A DNA stretch of 63,999 nucleotides, counting the filler, from Globobulimina sp. (taxonomy: Eukaryota), in assembly GCA_003354225.1 (NCBI GenBank). It is 13 parts of 13 records of this genome, joined end to end, with 100 filler letters (N's around TTAATTAATTAA, not from the genome) between each part and the next. Parts side by side here need not be neighbours in the genome. Positions count along the whole stretch, not along the records: positions 39,573 to 44,395 come from PIVH01000899.1; 12 more parts are not named here. One strand, written 5' to 3'. Each line of letters opens with the position of its first letter. Position 1 is the stretch's first letter. The position numbers and the translations under genes were made by a program. The notes beneath the pieces were generated by a model, which was given only the letters and a program-made list of their open reading frames with translations, searched no databases and had not been told where the DNA came from. This document shows positions 3,913 to 44,395 of the stretch, piece by piece.

Positions 3913-4860
3913 ATGTTGATAATATTAATATTAGCCGTTGTATCAATAATATGCCTGTTATTCTGTTTAATACTACATTTTGGCGAACATTTCCAGTTCA
4001 GATACTGTATCAAAATGAAAAGAACATTCAGCCATAGATCAACAAATATGCCCAATCTGAATTTCACAACAAATTCGGATATTGAACATGCGATGATGTC
4101 TACGACTAAGTATAAATCGAGATTCATCTGTCAAAGCTGTGTCGTTCCTGCAGATGAAGATGGTATTTTGTTTTTCATTTCATTTCTCTAATTTTGTTGT
4201 TGAATTAAGAAAAAATAAAAATAAAAAAGGGTTTGACTTCTATCCAGTTTCATTTGTACCATATTTAATATTTATAATAATTGTAACATTATTAATATTA
4301 TATGAATTAATTACAATTGAAATTAGGTCCAATCATAGTTATACGGAAATAGATTCTATTTACAATATGAGATTACAAATTTTTTCGGGTCGATTTTTGT
4401 CAATAAATGTAGGACGATATGACATAAAATATCAAATAAATAATGGTGATATTGCTATTATAACTGACTGGTTCTTGTTATATTTTATGATAATTATATC
4501 TGTTTGGGATTCATTGTTTTCGTTTTATAGATATTACACGACCATGAATGTTGCTACACGTTTTCAATCCGTGTCCACCATCAAAATTTTAAAATATTTT
4601 AGTGTTTATGGTATTCCATATTGCATCATTTATTTATTGCAAATTCATGTTTATTACTTTCTATTTCCATTATTAATAATATCGCATTTTGTGATTAACG
4701 TTTGGTGCAATTGGATGTTTGCTAAGATATTAATTGAATCAACAATGAAATTTGCAGAAATGGAGAGAATGGTTACAAATATTCATGATGATATGCTAAA
4801 AAGTGTATATTTTATGCGTAGAGCATCATTGTTATGGTGTTTTATATCCACTGTATGTCA
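3913..4860 (+). CDS. Multi-pass membrane protein (7TM-like), 3'-partial
   Basis: Several hydrophobic helices. A GT-AG intron near 4163-4229 links ORFs 3913-4191 and 4139-4912. Runs into the spacer. Confidence 0.6.
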
Positions 4861-4960
4861 NNNNNNNNNNNNNNNNNNNNNNNNNNNNNNNNNNNNNNNN
4901 NNNNTTAATTAATTAANNNNNNNNNNNNNNNNNNNNNNNNNNNNNNNNNNNNNNNNNNNN
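4861..4960. other. Artificial contig-joining spacer (N44-TTAATTAATTAA-N44), first of 12
   Basis: The identical 100-bp spacer, with stops in all six frames, also lies at 9813-9912, 14763-14862, 19713-19812, 24662-24761, 29607-29706, 34546-34645, 39473-39572, 44396-44495, 49317-49416, 54236-54335 and 59155-59254. Intervening contig lengths never increase (4852 down to 4819). Confidence 0.98.
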
Positions 4961-5782
4961 GCAGAATATCTCATAATACTTTTGAAATGAGATGGATAAT
5001 AACAATAATAACAATGAATTAATTACAATATCAAATATAAATAACCATAACATATTTACTCCAATGGATACAAACAAGATAGTTAAATGAGAAAATATTA
5101 TGCTCGACACCAAAATGAATAATTTCGGCACCAACATTACAGTCTGTTTATCAAAGGTTGCTGCTGAGTTTGGTCCGTAGTGTAGAATGGATTGGAATGG
5201 AATAAAAAAAATAATAACGAGGGATGCGCACAATATGACATCAATAATTATCTGAAGAAAACCAAATAAAAATGGAAATAAACGGATATCCATATCCTCA
5301 CAGTGGCGAACGGATTTTATCGACTCTCTCGATTCCACAAATCTTATATCAAAAAATAATGCATAAATCCATTGTAATATCATTAATATCCATACTAAAT
5401 ATTGCAAGTATTTGATGCATTTATTATAAAATTCTGAGCCATAATACAAATGTTTCCAATAACATATAATTACACAATATAACACATAATTAGATGTATG
5501 ATACAATGCTAATGATAATTTGCCTAAAATATTGCATGGAATGTTTACCAAATATGCTAATTCATTTAATATTGAGTTTAAACTGAAAATAATGTAAATA
5601 AATAATGTTAATATGGTGAAATAATGTGCTATATATTTCCATTTATCTGATCTTTCAAAAGGATTACTTTGTTGTAATTCAATTGGCACTGAATGTGTTT
5701 TGCAATTCACGATTAAATATGTTACTGTTACAGTTAATATAATTGCAAAACATATGCCAAAAATTATTGCTAACAACATCAT
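4961..5782 (-). CDS. 7TM GPCR-like membrane protein, 3'-partial
   Basis: About seven hydrophobic segments, with a Cys before TM3 (IPCNILGK) and in the second extracellular loop (RHCED). Confidence 0.6.
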
Positions 5783-5947
5783 GTGTTATTAGCATTACAC
5801 AGTGCGAATAATACAAAAATTACCCCTTTAAAAATACGCTAGAGTTGCCATCTTTCTTCAAAACTTTAAGTACTTACGGCATGTAAATTTTCATGTTTTA
5901 TTTAGAGGCTGGGCAATAACTCGAAAAAGTACAAGGTATTTTTGTAA

Positions 5948-6620
5948 TTATTTATAATTAATTTTTGTATGGAACAAAGTATAATAACATAATATCAATG
6001 TTTTTAAATAATGAGGAACATTCAATTCATATTTTTCTTCAATTTGAGTTCGTATCAATCCAAATGTTAATTTTCTAAATGTCTCAACATGATCTTGTTT
6101 TAAACCTTGTGGTATCACATCAAATAATGATACTTTGGTATGATACCAATCTTCATGAAGAAAATGTAAATACCCATCATTTGTGCCAATACAATGTGAA
6201 TGAATTCCATCATCAATATTTGTGCCAGACATATAAGATGGTAATTGTTTATTTGATTTGTGCCATTTATTTCTACCATTAAATAAATCTAAGCACCAAA
6301 TGCCAGTATTTCCCACACGAATTAAAATATAATCAAATGCCAATACCATGCAATGCGGAACCAACAGAAGATTGATATTCTGCAACATCTTTCATTTCAA
6401 AGTGTTTCCAGTCCTTTGGTTGCCGATCTAATCGCCTTGTTTCAAACTGTTCATTTTTAAAATCGAATGTATCCATAAACATTGGTAGATGGACGCGATA
6501 AATATTACTAGTTATCATTGAATAGACAATATTCATCGAATTATTGTTATTATAATAATATGTCGACGTTGCCCGATCTCGTGGTTTAAACCAACGACGA
6601 TGCGGTATCGGAAGATACAT
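5948..6620 (-). pseudogene. Kelch-like beta-propeller family member with a frameshift (pseudogene or assembly error)
   Basis: Overlapping ORFs 6333-6620 and 5948-6388 are in different frames with no plausible GT-AG intron between them. AFDYILI...IWCLDL...KWHKS and a tail motif shared with 8683-9768. Confidence 0.5.
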
Positions 6621-39572: not shown

Positions 39573-40200
39573 CGGCATACTTTTGGTGTTTATTTGATAA
39601 TATACGCCCTATTTTTAACATTTTATTATTTGTAAAATCAATATCACACAACTCATCATTTCTTTGATGTTTGATTTCATCATCAACGTTAACCATCTTT
39701 TTTTCTTCGGTGGTTAATCTCTGACCGATATCGTATGAATGGCTGAAATAACAATGGATTTTGTCCAAGATTTCAAGGATTGCGTTGAATTCAACATCGT
39801 TATCATGTTTTTTGAGGAATTTGTTGAATATATCGAGATTTAAATGTGATGCGAGCATATTATTTTGATCCCGATTATTTCTGCGGAATCCTGTACATTT
39901 TAAAATGTTACATGTGTTTAATTTACTGTTGGTGTATTTAAATTGTTCGTCATCATCATGGTTATGTAAGAAATGGAGATAAATATTTAATATTTGTGTT
40001 ATATTTATGTCTGATATATTTTTTTTATTTTGTTTTGGATTTAAATTGTATTCATCGTATGACCTCAATGCGTGTATTAATCTTGTCAAATGTGTGCAGT
40101 TGTGAACTAATTTGTTTTCACAAATAACATCTGCAGTCTTGGTTTCATAGGTTTTTGTTGTTGGTTGCGCTGGAGCCACGGTGCTGGGTTTTGAACCCAT
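39573..40200 (-). CDS. Hypothetical protein with a possible N-myristoylation signal (MGSKPS), 3'-partial
   Basis: Open frame with His/Cys pattern YLHFLHNH...C.I.KC..FRRN.R...LDKIHCYF.HSYD. Confidence 0.55.
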
Positions 40201-40280
40201 TGTGGATGCACAATGTTTTATGATAGATTTATTTTGTTGGAAACGTTCGTTCAATTGTTTTCAGACAAATTCTCAACATC

Positions 40281-40569
40281 ATGGCATTGGTTTCATGGAA
40301 GTGTGGTGAATGCGCCCAGATCAACCAGGTTTACGTACAAATATTAAATATTTCAGATCAAATTGAGAATAATATGTATATAATTTAGAATGTTTACTCA
40401 ACGACAAGATGCAAATGATTTGGCAGCAATCATCACAGAATATGTAGGAACAACATTCGATGCTACATTTTTGGGAAATAATTTTTATCATAATCAGTTA
40501 TTTCAATCGGATCACCGTGCGAGATGCAGGATCTTAATCCACGAATTTCCATTTAAAACCATAACATGA
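40281..40569 (+). pseudogene. Small frame-disrupted ORF overlapping the 3' end of the endonuclease
   Basis: MALVSWKCGECAQINQ...MYII stops at TAG 40386-40388. The +1 frame continues MFTQRQDANDLAAIITEYVG... to 40569. Confidence 0.3.
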
Positions 40570-41591
40570 CAGCCTTTCCCCTCTACAAACTCTCAATATG
40601 CTACTTGGTATAATATTTAACATCTCAGCAGCAGAAGCTGCATTTTCCCAAACTTTTATAACAGATCCACTGTTTCTATCAAGCTGTACGATTTGTGAGT
40701 ACATCTTATTTAAGTTTGGTTTAAAATGCAACTGCGGGCAACGATCCTGGTATTGACATTGAAATAGATTCCGATATTCATCACTATCCAAAAAATGCAA
40801 AATCTCCTCTGATCTTTGTTTTTGTTTCAAATGGCAACCTCGTGAAATTTCCGATACAATGCATATTTTCTATGCAATCTAATTGATTCATCACAATCTT
40901 TGTACATCCAATTCAAAACAGTCATGGGCGCAAATACTCCGTTATAAGCTAACCTTTGGCAGTTTTGATTGTTGTAAACAGTGCCTTTAATTCTTGCTTC
41001 ATTGAACAAATGCTTTTTGAGATATGCTTGCAACTCAGGGATAAATGTAAAGGAACCAATAAAAATTGCCACAAAAGCACGATTACATTTGTCATAGTGA
41101 ATACAACCATCGCCATCAAAATATCCTCGTACAAAATGATGAGCATATTCATCAGGTAAATTAGTTGGCCACTGCAATGTCAATGATTTCCTCGGTGTGC
41201 ATCCTAATTGAATCAAATCTAATGCCAATGCAGAATTCGATATAGAGTGATAAGCAGCACATGATTCCTTCTTGGAATCCATATACTTGTAACTAGTCTT
41301 CCTCAATCCTAGAGCGTATGTTGATTGTAACGCTTTTTTGTATTTCTCAACATGTGGATAGTCAATGCATTTTAAATTCAGTTGAATTTGATTTTGATGG
41401 GTTGTTCTTGTTTCATGCACATTGCCATCAGCAAACAAGAATCCTAACCAGTATGCCATAGATGGATTCCATGATTTGAAGAATGAGACATTACATGATG
41501 GTGCTCTGCTATGTAATTTACGACATGGCACCACAAATATCATCTGATTTAGATAAAGGTTATAAAAACTTGTGCTAAGCGCAAGGATCAT
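40534..41591 (-). mobile_element. Free-standing two-motif LAGLIDADG homing-endonuclease gene with C-terminal NUMOD1 domain; frameshift at about 40828
   Basis: Motif 1 AYWLGFLFADG; motif 2 HFVRGYFDGDG; linker DLIQLGCTPRKSLTLQWP. The overlapping downstream frame (40534-40830) encodes IVQLD...VIKVWENAASAAEMLNI..SSILRVCRGER.SCYGFKWKF (NUMOD1-type HTH). Confidence 0.85.
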
Positions 41592-41614
41592 TGTTTCTCT
41601 TAAATTTAAGTTTA

Positions 41615-42575
41615 TCAACTTTTGGAATACAAATATTGCGCATGAAAGTCTATATGATTCTCAACAAAACTCGAAATAAAATGATAAGAATGATCGTAAC
41701 CTTTTTGCATTCTCAAATGAACATTGACATTTTCGCATTGTTTGCTCTCAGCCACAAAATTCTCCGGCAATAACTGATTATGATTATCCTCCCCATCATT
41801 TAAAAATTGATCATCACTGCCTTGGTCAATTAAAATATCCACTTCGTCATCCCCGCTTGGTATGAAATTTTCCAACAAGACAGTGGCATCATACTGTCTC
41901 CATCTGTACAAATTATGTTCCTTCTCTCCTAAATAACCAGTAAAACATTTTTGTCCCCATCTGCAATTTATAGGATTACAAATGGGCGAAAATGCCGAGA
42001 CTGACTTATATAATCTTGCATTGCGCAAATATGAAACTAACGCACCATGTCCTCCCATACTATGACCAAAAATAGATGCATTGTTCATTTGTAATGGTAA
42101 TTTTGCATCGCGTAATAACATTGGCAGCTCACTATTAATATAATCATACATATTATAATATTCATTGTAAGGTTTTTGTGTTGCATTCACATAAAAACCA
42201 GCGCCTGAACCAAAATCATAGGAATCATGCTCTCCGTTAAGCTCTTTTACAGTTCGAGGTGATGTATCTGGACAAACCAATGCTATGTTGTTTGCATTTG
42301 CATATTTTTGTGCACCGGCTTTTTGAATAAAATTATCTTCGGTGCAGGTTAAACCAGATAACCAATATAGTATTGGCACATCATTTTTATTTGCTGCTTC
42401 AGGAAGAAACAATGAAAATCGCGCCGACAAGCCACCTAAAACTGCACTTGTATGCTCATATTTCTATAGGTGATGTTGTAGTTGATATATATTTGAAGAA
42501 TAGAATATAAAAAGAGTTAACGTGGACGTAACCACCAAAGCTTTTAGCAGAGCTCAGCAATTTAATGGCGGACAT
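41615..42575 (-). CDS. ESD: S-formylglutathione hydrolase (esterase D), 2 exons
   Basis: LYWLSGLTCTEDNF, PDTSPR, DFGSGAGFY, GHSMGGHGAL, IDQG..D.FL and GYDHSY; intron 42464-42521. Confidence 0.96.
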
Positions 42576-42766
42576 TTTGGACATTATTTATTGTTTAGTA
42601 CAAAAACTTAAATTGTGCAAGGATTCCTACTACTTTCTTTTTTTTGTGCAATTTAGTTTTTGTGCAAGGATAAAATTATGAAATCGATACACAAACTTCA
42701 CATTAAAACATTGTTGATTTATTGAAACACTCTGAAAAGAAAATGTGTTATTATCGATTATTATTC

Positions 42767-43147
42767 CTATTCAGGGCCATTCTGTACTTCAATTGGATAT
42801 AAAGTACTGAATATTTCAGGCCCCGCCAAAAACATCAACACAATTAATATTATGGGCGAAACAACACATTGTCCAACCAAAAATTTCACCGAAAGTGATT
42901 GTTTTAACGCAGATTCTGTATAGTTCCCAGTCCAATATAATTCTGTTGCTTTTTGATGATAATATAATGATATCCATGATGCGCAAGGCACGGCGGGGCA
43001 ACATAATATTGATGCAATTATAATGCAAATAAGATCACGGAAATTATCTGATTCCTCAACGTATACTACATGAGGTTCATCCTCTGGTTTCGCCACTAAT
43101 GCGGTAACTGCCACTAAATTTGGGTCATCTTGCATTAACGCTGACAT
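42767..43147 (-). CDS. Small membrane protein, CD225/dispanin-like
   Basis: IIASILCC....SWISLYY..KA...Y..GNY..S....S.K followed by a second hydrophobic helix. Confidence 0.5.
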   Translation of the reverse strand: MSALMQDDPNLVAVTALVAKPEDEPHVVYVEESDNFRDLICIIIASILCCPAVPCASWISLYYHQKATELYWTGNYTESALKQSLSVKFLVGQCVVSPIILIVLMFLAGPEIFSTLYPIEVQNGPE

Positions 43148-43269
43148 TATTTCAACTTTTTGTATTAAAATTTTTTGATTTCACTAAAAAAACTTTAGTG
43201 TAAAAAAAAACACCTCAAACCATGACACATATAATACAATAAATCACAAATTATACCAACAACAACATC

Positions 43270-44395
43270 ATGAACCAACCACCATTACCACCAATACCCC
43301 AAATCTCTTCAAACAAAAACAAAAAACGAAACGCCAACAAAGCATTATCAACCCTGTCATTCGACATACGTCGCGTTCGCAAAATCCGTCGTTTAGATCG
43401 CAAAATACGTTCAATTTCATCTGGCTCCTCCAAAGAACTCCAACGAGAGATTGAAAAAATCAAAAAAGAGCGCAACTTAAAATTAGAACAACTATCAGAA
43501 GCACAAGCTTCTGAGATCAACGACAGTCGAAAAAGATACACCTTATACATGCAAGAGATCGAAAAAGAAATGAGCGAAAAGAAGAAAATCCTGCAAAACC
43601 ATTGCAGCACAAAACTACAACGCATCAAAACGCGCATCATTTCCAACCATAAAAACGCAGAAAAATCGCAGTTTTCAATCCGTTCCATCCGCGATCACAA
43701 AATCAAAATCTCAGTCTCGCGCAAATATTCCATCCGCGACATTCGCACTGACATTTTATCCGTATTCGTAAACTGGAAAAACGAGATCCAATTCAGCACC
43801 AAACGCGCGACTCGCGCTGCCACCAAAAACAAGAAAACAAATATCTACGGCAGCACAGATTTGAGCCGCATTCGTTTCCATTTGAAAGAAGAGGAAATCA
43901 AATACGATTTGCGTACGCTATTAGACGCAGAACACGCGAACAATAACTATCGATATAGATATTCAGACGAAGACATGGATGACGATATAACCAACGCGTT
44001 CCATCAACAGCCATCGTATATTGACCGGCATATTAGCGGCATAACCAATAAATTGGGCCCTTTGAACGACCCTGGCATTGAAGACCCGTTATATCCACGG
44101 AGCAGACGGCACCGTGTGGCGCGGGTCAATTATGACCAGAGTGGGGTCAATGGGTTGGATGTGGGCGTGCGTGGTGGCGATGGTGGGCGCGATATGAGCA
44201 ATATGTATCATACACAGGATGTGCATTTTTATGACAGTGTGGGGAGTGGTGTTGGGAATAAGGTGGATGAGGCGAGCGGTTATACGAATAATGAGGGCGA
44301 AGTGGTGGGGATACCGATGGAGGAACGTGGGCATAATGTGGTGATTGGCGGCTTTGCCGTGGGACATGGCTCGGTGGTGCGGTTGAACTATTTGG
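43270..44395 (+). CDS. Sds3/BRMS1-like coiled-coil protein, 3'-partial
   Basis: Long charged coiled coil (I..G...EL...IEKI..ER..KL), then RFHLKEEEIKYDLRTL, resembling the Sds3 Sin3-interaction segment. Confidence 0.5.

Follow-up and report, generated by a model that had tools for sequence, protein, structure and literature searches.

To our knowledge, the LAGLIDADG genes of eukaryotes sit almost all in organellar or ribosomal DNA introns and in inteins, and free-standing nuclear copies are rare. The yeast HO protein is nuclear-encoded and belongs to the LAGLIDADG_3 class; it keeps intein (Hint) remnants and has a zinc-finger tail. The LAGLIDADG_1 and LAGLIDADG_2 enzymes of organellar group I introns, such as I-AniI and the bI3 maturase, have a two-domain fold. 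In phages, LAGLIDADG_3 proteins occur as free-standing genes with a double-motif core (phrog_4645; listed in the Atlas as 'LAGLIDADG-like/NUMOD1 domain-containing protein', mostly Uroviricota). The homing endonucleases I-HmuI (phage SPO1, HNH) and I-TevI (phage T4, GIY-YIG) carry a DNA-binding helix-turn-helix (HTH) domain; the tethered HTH extends DNA recognition in I-HmuI, according to the available part of PMC10319021. The DB-sCTPs of Paulinella chromatophora, encoded by a multigene family in the nucleus of this rhizarian, are HTH proteins of about 50 residues that stand alone and are imported into the chromatophore. Their origin from an invading homing endonuclease has been proposed, and no intact nuclease was found, as stated in the same part of that article (PMC10319021). 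Here we describe a broken LAGLIDADG-HTH gene on the minus strand of a 63,999-base stretch of Globobulimina sp. DNA (the window), where it lies directly behind the gene for esterase D (ESD, S-formylglutathione hydrolase). This gene is probably a recently disabled copy of an undescribed nuclear, free-standing and phage-derived LAGLIDADG-HTH family in Foraminifera.

The nuclease gene and ESD are laid out as follows, in the direction of reading.

42522..42584, minus strand: ESD exon 1, 21 codons from the ATG at 42584; read from the sequence, the junction confirmed by spliced contigs
42464..42521, minus strand: ESD spliceosomal intron, 58 nucleotides (nt), GT..AG; skipped in contigs of runs X2, X6 and X8
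41615..42463, minus strand: ESD exon 2, including the stop TGA at 41617-41615; Pfam PF00756, E 6.9e-48
41592..41614, minus strand: spacer of 23 nt from the ESD stop to the first ATG of the nuclease gene; read from the sequence
40827..41591, minus strand: open reading frame 1 (ORF1), basic N-terminal extension and double-motif LAGLIDADG_3 core, 254 codons, stop TGA at 40829-40827
41424..41447, minus strand: LAGLIDADG motif 1, LGFLFADG, acidic residue kept
41106..41129, minus strand: LAGLIDADG motif 2, RGYFDGDG, acidic residue kept
40827..40833, minus strand: frameshift site, a one-base frame change relative to all full-length relatives; from the tblastn split and the alignment (X at the break)
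40534..40830, minus strand: ORF2, conserved Cys-containing linker and C-terminal HTH, 98 codons and stop
40761-40732, minus strand: linker segment QCQYQDRCPQ in ORF2
40537..40692, minus strand: predicted beta-beta-helix-turn-helix-beta DNA-binding domain of the I-HmuI/I-TevI type; from AF2, VIA, Foldseek and PHROG

The first-pass annotation had read 40534-41618 as one intronless ORF. The segment is instead made of two ORFs in different frames, with one base lost between the nuclease core and the linker. When the homologue P0001 was aligned by tblastn, its residues 26-241 matched 41510-40833 and its residues 243-341 matched 40830-40537; one residue is missing between them. There are no stops in the two coding frames; the other frames contain 15 and 24 stops in ORF1, and 4 and 11 in ORF2. 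The composition-based chance of staying open is about 3e-9 for ORF1 and about 5e-4 for ORF2. The same frameshift sequence is found in a contig of run X1 (identical) and in record 7 of run X2 (40720-40921), which comes from another study and shows no gap or difference. The copy is frameshifted, and therefore encodes no intact LAGLIDADG-HTH protein as it stands. It would make at most a core of 254 residues, which lacks the linker and the HTH. Since each half is intact and conserved apart from the frameshift, the break probably arose recently; the copy in the window is most likely a young pseudogene.

ORF1 has the core of a double-motif, monomeric LAGLIDADG_3 endonuclease. The two LAGLIDADG motifs lie on the minus strand where they had first been read, with an acidic residue before the final G in each. 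The catalytic Asp columns are conserved in at least 90% of the 20 aligned rows. ORF1 matches Pfam LAGLIDADG_3 (PF14528) with 33 bits against a cut-off of 22.5 (E 7.4e-8), and 18 of 20 scanned sequences (18 family proteins and the two ORFs of the window) match the same family. The PHROG family phrog_4645 ('endonuclease') is matched by 19 of the 20; ORF1 matches it with E 4.7e-49, protein residues 40-258 lying on profile positions 94-303 of 308, so that the first ~93 positions are unmatched. Matches to Pfam LAGLIDADG_1 are weak (8 of the 20; best E 0.0044, under the cut-off of 23.1 bits in the one sequence tabulated). An AF2 model of P0001, which is 56% identical to the window gene, has a mean predicted local distance difference test score (pLDDT) of 84; residues 1-26 are disordered (pLDDT<50). 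The model is folded into two alpha-beta-beta-alpha-beta-beta-alpha half-domains. In Foldseek it has 117 matches at E<=1e-3, and the best ones are the monomeric LAGLIDADG enzymes or maturases I-PanMI, I-AniI, I-GzeII, bI3 maturase and I-Tsp061I. The two-domain fold is shared with the organellar LAGLIDADG_1/2 enzymes (Foldseek E about 1e-7 for P0001), although the window gene is neither in an intron nor organellar.

The C-terminus of ORF2 is, by its predicted fold, an HTH of the I-HmuI/I-TevI type. The AF2 model of ORF2 has a pLDDT of 84.6 and shows a beta-beta-helix-helix-beta arrangement over residues 46-95. Its best structural match is the C-terminal domain of I-HmuI (1u3e, residues 120-172), with a VIA Z of 7.7 and a root-mean-square deviation of 1.8 A over 53 residues; Foldseek finds the same protein with E 7.2e-3 and prob 1.00. 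The next VIA matches are the Paulinella sCTP-23166 (8b6e; Z 6.8) and the I-TevI DNA-binding domain (Z 4.8, 1.7 A, 42 residues). The anti-CRISPR AcrVA3 follows at Z 4.6, and all remaining rows have Z<=3.1. Weak matches to the PHROG family phrog_20162 ('HNH endonuclease') were obtained for 12 of the 20 scanned sequences (best E 6.7e-4); PF22083 (I-HmuI_NUMOD-like) is matched by one, with E 0.073. The assignment was made because three HTH entries of the homing-endonuclease type top the list and the PHROG matches agree with them. The domain had been annotated as a NUMOD1-type HTH. An HTH of the I-HmuI type is supported by the predicted fold, but the domain is not a member of Pfam NUMOD1 (PF07453), which none of the 20 sequences matched. 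I-HmuI and I-TevI have an HNH and a GIY-YIG catalytic domain, whereas the window family has a LAGLIDADG core; their likeness to the last ~55 residues is one of predicted fold, without a significant sequence match. The PDB gave no sequence match to the family profile (E<=1) or to the 49-residue HTH (E<=10). A search with P0001 residues 283-342, the HTH alone, in a word-indexed protein collection returned only the query and is uninformative on the distribution of the domain.

A homologue search gave 1,922 of 2,124 candidates at E<=0.001. The best relatives are EukProt proteins of 300-342 residues, which are 50-56% identical and have the whole layout in common. From the N-terminus, this consists of a short extension, a conserved C-[ND]-x2-F-F-x2-W block, both LAGLIDADG motifs, a linker with conserved Cys...C-P and the HTH. 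Among the 14 EukProt members whose species were looked up, nine are from Bolivina argentea and five from Nonionella stella; seven further EukProt hits were listed beyond those 14. ORF2 is 38-48% identical to the full-length members. Unnamed ENA and Logan (metagenome) proteins of 38-50% identity have the same layout or end after the linker. Five family members that end there and have no HTH (P0026, P0031, P0032, P0034 and P0035) are basal in the clade. A profile search of 1.84 billion representatives gave 36,348 matches at E<=1e-3 and 1,982 at E<=1e-30; coverage reached the end of the HTH in only 10 of the best 150. The stretch upstream of the conserved MAYWLG start is basic and acid-poor in all 13 extended members (K+R 3-7, D+E 0-1; composition only). 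The window gene is one copy of a multi-copy family, which is common to at least two other foraminifera. Two diverged members, P0027 and P0028, may share one contig, as both are recorded with a longest contig of 21,417 nt. P0028 has lost a catalytic Asp, because its motif 2 reads DGNG and not DGDG.

Phylogenetic trees were reconstructed from two samples of the hits. The first was a quick, unrooted maximum-likelihood tree of 113 rows, from which 8 of 120 listed hits had been dropped (<200 residues). The window gene and 13 foraminiferal rows group together with a Shimodaira-Hasegawa-like approximate likelihood ratio test (SH-aLRT) support of 96. They lie within a eukaryote-type clade of 30 rows (99), to which unnamed metagenome proteins also belong. 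The neighbouring clade has 33 rows, among them P0060 and P0076, both labelled as candidate phyla radiation (CPR) bacteria (SH-aLRT 93). The second tree had 103 rows; ORFs of 13 metagenome, 15 viral and 20 prokaryote loci were added, and every third remaining protein hit was kept. The eukaryote-type clade was again recovered, with 27 rows on one side of a branch (SH-aLRT 98). The clade neighbours are phage, CPR-bacterial and DPANN-archaeal LAGLIDADG_3 proteins. A donor near the clade of P0060 and P0076 was considered; its SH-aLRT is only 93 in a quick unrooted tree, and no donor is claimed. The phage or prokaryote type of the protein, as first proposed, is borne out by phrog_4645 and by both trees. 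The same proposal had a horizontally acquired selfish nuclease or a domesticated factor. The phage type of the gene agrees with it; a lone, recent acquisition does not hold, as the gene belongs to a multi-copy family with members at 50-56% identity.

The phage LAGLIDADG_3 proteins resemble the window gene in the double-motif core and in being free-standing. However, their setting is different, since the window gene belongs to the nuclear genome of a eukaryote and its neighbour has a spliceosomal intron. They also differ in architecture: phrog_4645 has about 93 further N-terminal positions, whereas the foraminiferal family has a short basic extension, the Cys...C-P linker and the C-terminal HTH. 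The phage, viral and prokaryote sequences are only 26-42% identical to the window gene; phage records reach at most 36%, and 239 metagenome, viral and prokaryote loci at most 42%. No eukaryote-type copy was found among the fetched metagenome, viral and prokaryote contigs. Several of the listed bacterial and metagenome relatives carry HTH-family Pfam domains. A hidden Markov model (HMM) of the HTH found 5 ORFs at E<=0.01 in 159 metagenome and viral loci, and only one of them, in locus L005, has a LAGLIDADG core; there were no matches at E<=1 in 80 prokaryote loci. L005 is phage-like, gene-dense and coded on a single strand. Its gene at 4356-5378 encodes a LAGLIDADG protein with an HTH at either end, the C-terminal one being of the type seen in the window family. 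An HNH endonuclease, whose HTH is similar, is encoded at 202-1024. At 4097-6325 the nuclease gene splits another gene, the first ~90 codons of which occur twice, once on each side. Such a partial duplication resembles the insertion footprint of a free-standing homing endonuclease. Among the nearest phage LAGLIDADG_3 clusters of the Atlas, 12-16% of the members have NUMOD1, which is taken as a lead only. The pairing of LAGLIDADG and HTH is not peculiar to the window gene, because it is present in L005 and in the Atlas clusters. L005 is not sister to the eukaryote-type clade in the second tree, so no donor is named.

The nuclease locus lies in the nuclear DNA of a foraminiferan. The spliceosomal intron that had been read in ESD is spliced: exactly its 58 bases are absent from contigs of runs X2, X6 and X8, which belong to three studies. 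For the ESD protein, the closest named relatives come from the foraminifera Bolivina argentea (79% identity) and Nonionella stella (75%), followed by others at 53-59%. The host is a foraminiferan and the DNA nuclear, because the intron is spliced and the protein is this close to the foraminiferal ESDs. The spliced ESD form in X6 and X8 is 90-99% like the window and represents a diverged allele, a strain or a sister species. As had been noted, the nuclease gene is co-oriented with ESD and directly behind it, with its first ATG at 41591. The codon usage of the nuclease gene is like that of its neighbours (correlation of relative synonymous codon usage 0.70 with ESD and 0.66 with the left gene; third-position GC 0.30-0.32). 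Such host-like codon usage fits an old acquisition that was followed by expansion in the lineage.

It might be asked whether the adjacency of ESD and the nuclease gene is an artefact, either a contamination of bacterial, phage or organellar origin or a chimeric join. Fragmentation of the assembly is high, with 13 contigs of about 4.8 kb in the window, and the protein type is typical of phages. However, a contig of run X1 (39573-43253) bridges the two genes with no differences, although X1 is possibly the source data of the assembly and the bridge is then not fully independent. An ESD transcript contig of X8, from another study and about 4% diverged, reaches 41572 and so extends 43 nt beyond the ESD stop and 19 nt beyond the ATG of the nuclease gene. 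The check for a chimeric junction, which had been suggested at the outset, thus came out in favour of a real one. Moreover, the closest relatives are foraminiferal transcripts with 50-56% identity, against at most 42% for the 239 metagenome, viral and prokaryote loci and at most 36% for phage records, and the codon usage matches the neighbour genes. We consider an artefact very improbable. The nuclease copy lies inside the 3' untranslated region of ESD or at its end. In X8, two nucleotides of the spacer are deleted, at 41609. An intron-, intein- or organelle-encoded origin was rejected, as there is no such signature and the nearest relatives are found among phages, CPR and DPANN rather than in mitochondria. 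No group I or group II intron family was found at E<=1 on 39573-44395 with Rfam (a single snoRNA match was below threshold), and no Hint or intein domain at E<=10 with Pfam. The gene is therefore free-standing, without a group I intron core or intein ends, as it had been described. It differs from yeast HO, since no Hint domain was detected in the window family and its tail is an HTH.

The family probably descends from free-standing phage or prokaryotic homing endonucleases. By homology and predicted fold, its intact members would be site-specific DNA endonucleases. The two LAGLIDADG half-domains would together make up a saddle for reading an asymmetric site of roughly 20 bp. The two conserved Asp residues would bind metal ions for cleavage. 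By analogy with I-HmuI, the tethered HTH might add several flanking base pairs of recognition. In the window copy, one base has been lost between the nuclease core and the linker, probably recently. That the elements are selfish is favoured by the many paralogues, the retained catalytic residues, the broken copy and the place 23 nt behind a conserved gene; this place recalls the free-standing nuclease genes of phages, which lie between or in genes as in L005. Several points weigh against the reading of the window gene as a recently disabled copy of a nuclease family. Cleavage, a target site and mobility are putative properties of the family. The evidence for the core fold comes from the homologue P0001 and not from ORF1 of the window. 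The score of the HTH match is moderate and prediction-based; a best VIA Z of 7-8 is common, and no Pfam family was found at E<=10 on ORF2, nor NUMOD1 in any of the scanned sequences. The frameshift is known only from near-identical material (>=99%), which is possibly the same strain, and a core-only product could still be active. In addition, three short contigs of X2 lie over the nuclease ORFs (40720-40921, 40892-41148 and 41224-41392). X2 holds RNA, because it carries the spliced form of ESD. The nuclease locus may thus be transcribed; DNA carry-over in X2 is an alternative. The ATG of the nuclease gene is very near the ESD stop, so that any promoter would have to lie inside ESD, unless the ORF is reached by read-through only. 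X6 and X8 have no contig over 40378-41504 (>=90% likeness), and X2 has none over 40217-40699 or over the junction of ESD and the nuclease gene; such gaps carry no weight as evidence. No listed run is recorded as RNA, and the contig depths are unusable for ranking genes.

Another question is whether the window copy is still functional. It might act as an HTH-less core of 254 residues, or ribosomes that slip into the frame of ORF2 might yield the full-length protein. ORF2 has no stops in 97 codons, which is unlikely by chance as given above, and it is as conserved as in the relatives. Natural members without an HTH exist, and a one-base backward slip at the stop restores a family-like sequence. 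Yet an intact ORF2 is equally expected from a recent break, and no relative needs a shift. Slippery sites follow the heptamer rule X XXY YYZ, and the break site is not a canonical heptamer of this kind. A functional copy is unlikely, though less so than an artefact. A more serious possibility, which we still regard as doubtful, is that the family has been domesticated. Its intact members would be imported into mitochondria and act there on DNA or RNA, with roles in recombination, repair or the splicing of introns, and the window copy would be a dead paralogue. The basic, acid-poor N-termini of all 13 extended members, with the disordered residues 1-26 of P0001, are consistent with import; they equally fit a nuclear localisation signal or a DNA-contacting arm. 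Many diverged paralogues in two transcriptomes are open and conserved in their motifs, and the same HTH fold is found in a rhizarian organelle-targeted family (8b6e, Z 6.8; as described in the accessible part of PMC10319021). However, the catalytic Asp residues are retained, as a mobile nuclease needs. The DB-sCTPs resemble the window family as a rhizarian nuclear multigene family with this HTH fold, but they are stand-alone domains, whereas the HTH of the window family is on an apparently catalytic LAGLIDADG core. The PDB sequence searches revealed no link to the sCTPs at the sequence level.

The nuclease locus has a small sequence context. The window consists of 13 pieces of ~4.8 kb each, which are artificially joined in the order of falling length, and therefore features on separate pieces are unlinked. 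The spacers are 24 runs of 44 N, paired around the 12-mer TTAATTAATTAA (N44-TTAATTAATTAA-N44), between 4861 and 59254. The GC content varies between the pieces from about 0.23 to 0.47. The contig of the nuclease locus (39573-44395, 4,823 bases) is the sole context for the gene. The first-pass annotation had placed it on a contig with other host genes; further genes are indeed present, but within only 4,823 bases, as the window is a join of 13 contigs. The other features of this contig are listed below.

39573 to about 40200, minus strand: gene running off the left contig end
42767 to 43147 (43147-42767), minus strand: 126-codon ORF
from 43270, plus strand: Sds3-like ORF
40487..40502, no strand: inverted repeat arm 1, 16 nt, perfect
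41769..41784, no strand: inverted repeat arm 2, 16 nt, inside ESD exon 2

Between the arms of the 16-nt inverted repeat lie the nuclease gene and about 50 codons at the end of ESD, and 0.01 such repeats are expected by chance. No longer homology or duplication was found around it. A duplicated 3' fragment of ESD downstream of the nuclease gene, comparable to the duplication in L005, was sought, and only this isolated repeat was seen. A short open stretch lies at about 40275-40335 on the plus strand, in the 335-nt gap between the nuclease gene and its left neighbour. By eye it reads M-A-L-V-S-W-K-C-G-E-C-A-Q-I-N and is followed by a possible GT..AG intron; it has no support in the runs. We take it to resemble the start of a RanBP2-type zinc finger. 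The other 12 contigs of the window hold no second nuclease copy, all other tblastn matches having E>=0.38. On the neighbouring contig (37829-39058), an ORF with a long acidic tail contains a SOS-response-associated peptidase domain (SRAP, HMCES-like; Pfam E 2.3e-18).

No description of such a nuclear LAGLIDADG family in foraminifera was found in open PMC papers and bioRxiv. In the part of PMC13421374 that could be accessed, terms for LAGLIDADG or homing endonucleases and for foraminifera are confined to the introduction and the reference list. The transcriptomes of N. stella and B. argentea come from both poly(A)-selected and total-RNA libraries, and the word 'endonuclease' is absent from the main text, as far as the available portion of that article goes (PMC8153729). 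As the library types are mixed there, polyadenylation of the family transcripts is not concluded.

At the window locus alone the result is modest, as it concerns a single and probably dead copy. The protein fold itself is ordinary; what is new is the nuclear, free-standing and multi-copy setting in foraminifera. A multi-copy nuclear family of phage type across several foraminifera would be a new setting for homing endonucleases. We tentatively raise the possibility that Foraminifera carry an expanded and expressed nuclear family of phage-derived LAGLIDADG-HTH proteins, which might be catalytically competent. Its members might be active homing elements beside housekeeping genes, or domesticated nucleases or binders that are imported into mitochondria. 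If active, they would be natural nuclear elements like gene drives in a protist, and a source of new meganuclease scaffolds to which an HTH is tethered. With import into mitochondria, the family would correspond to the Paulinella DB-sCTPs, but with a nuclease attached, and might even represent their ancestral form. Import into the organelle would also mean a second rhizarian recruitment of homing-endonuclease modules for the control of an organelle genome, and the family would supply the nuclease-bearing relative sought by the authors of the Paulinella sCTP work, as far as the available part of their article indicates.

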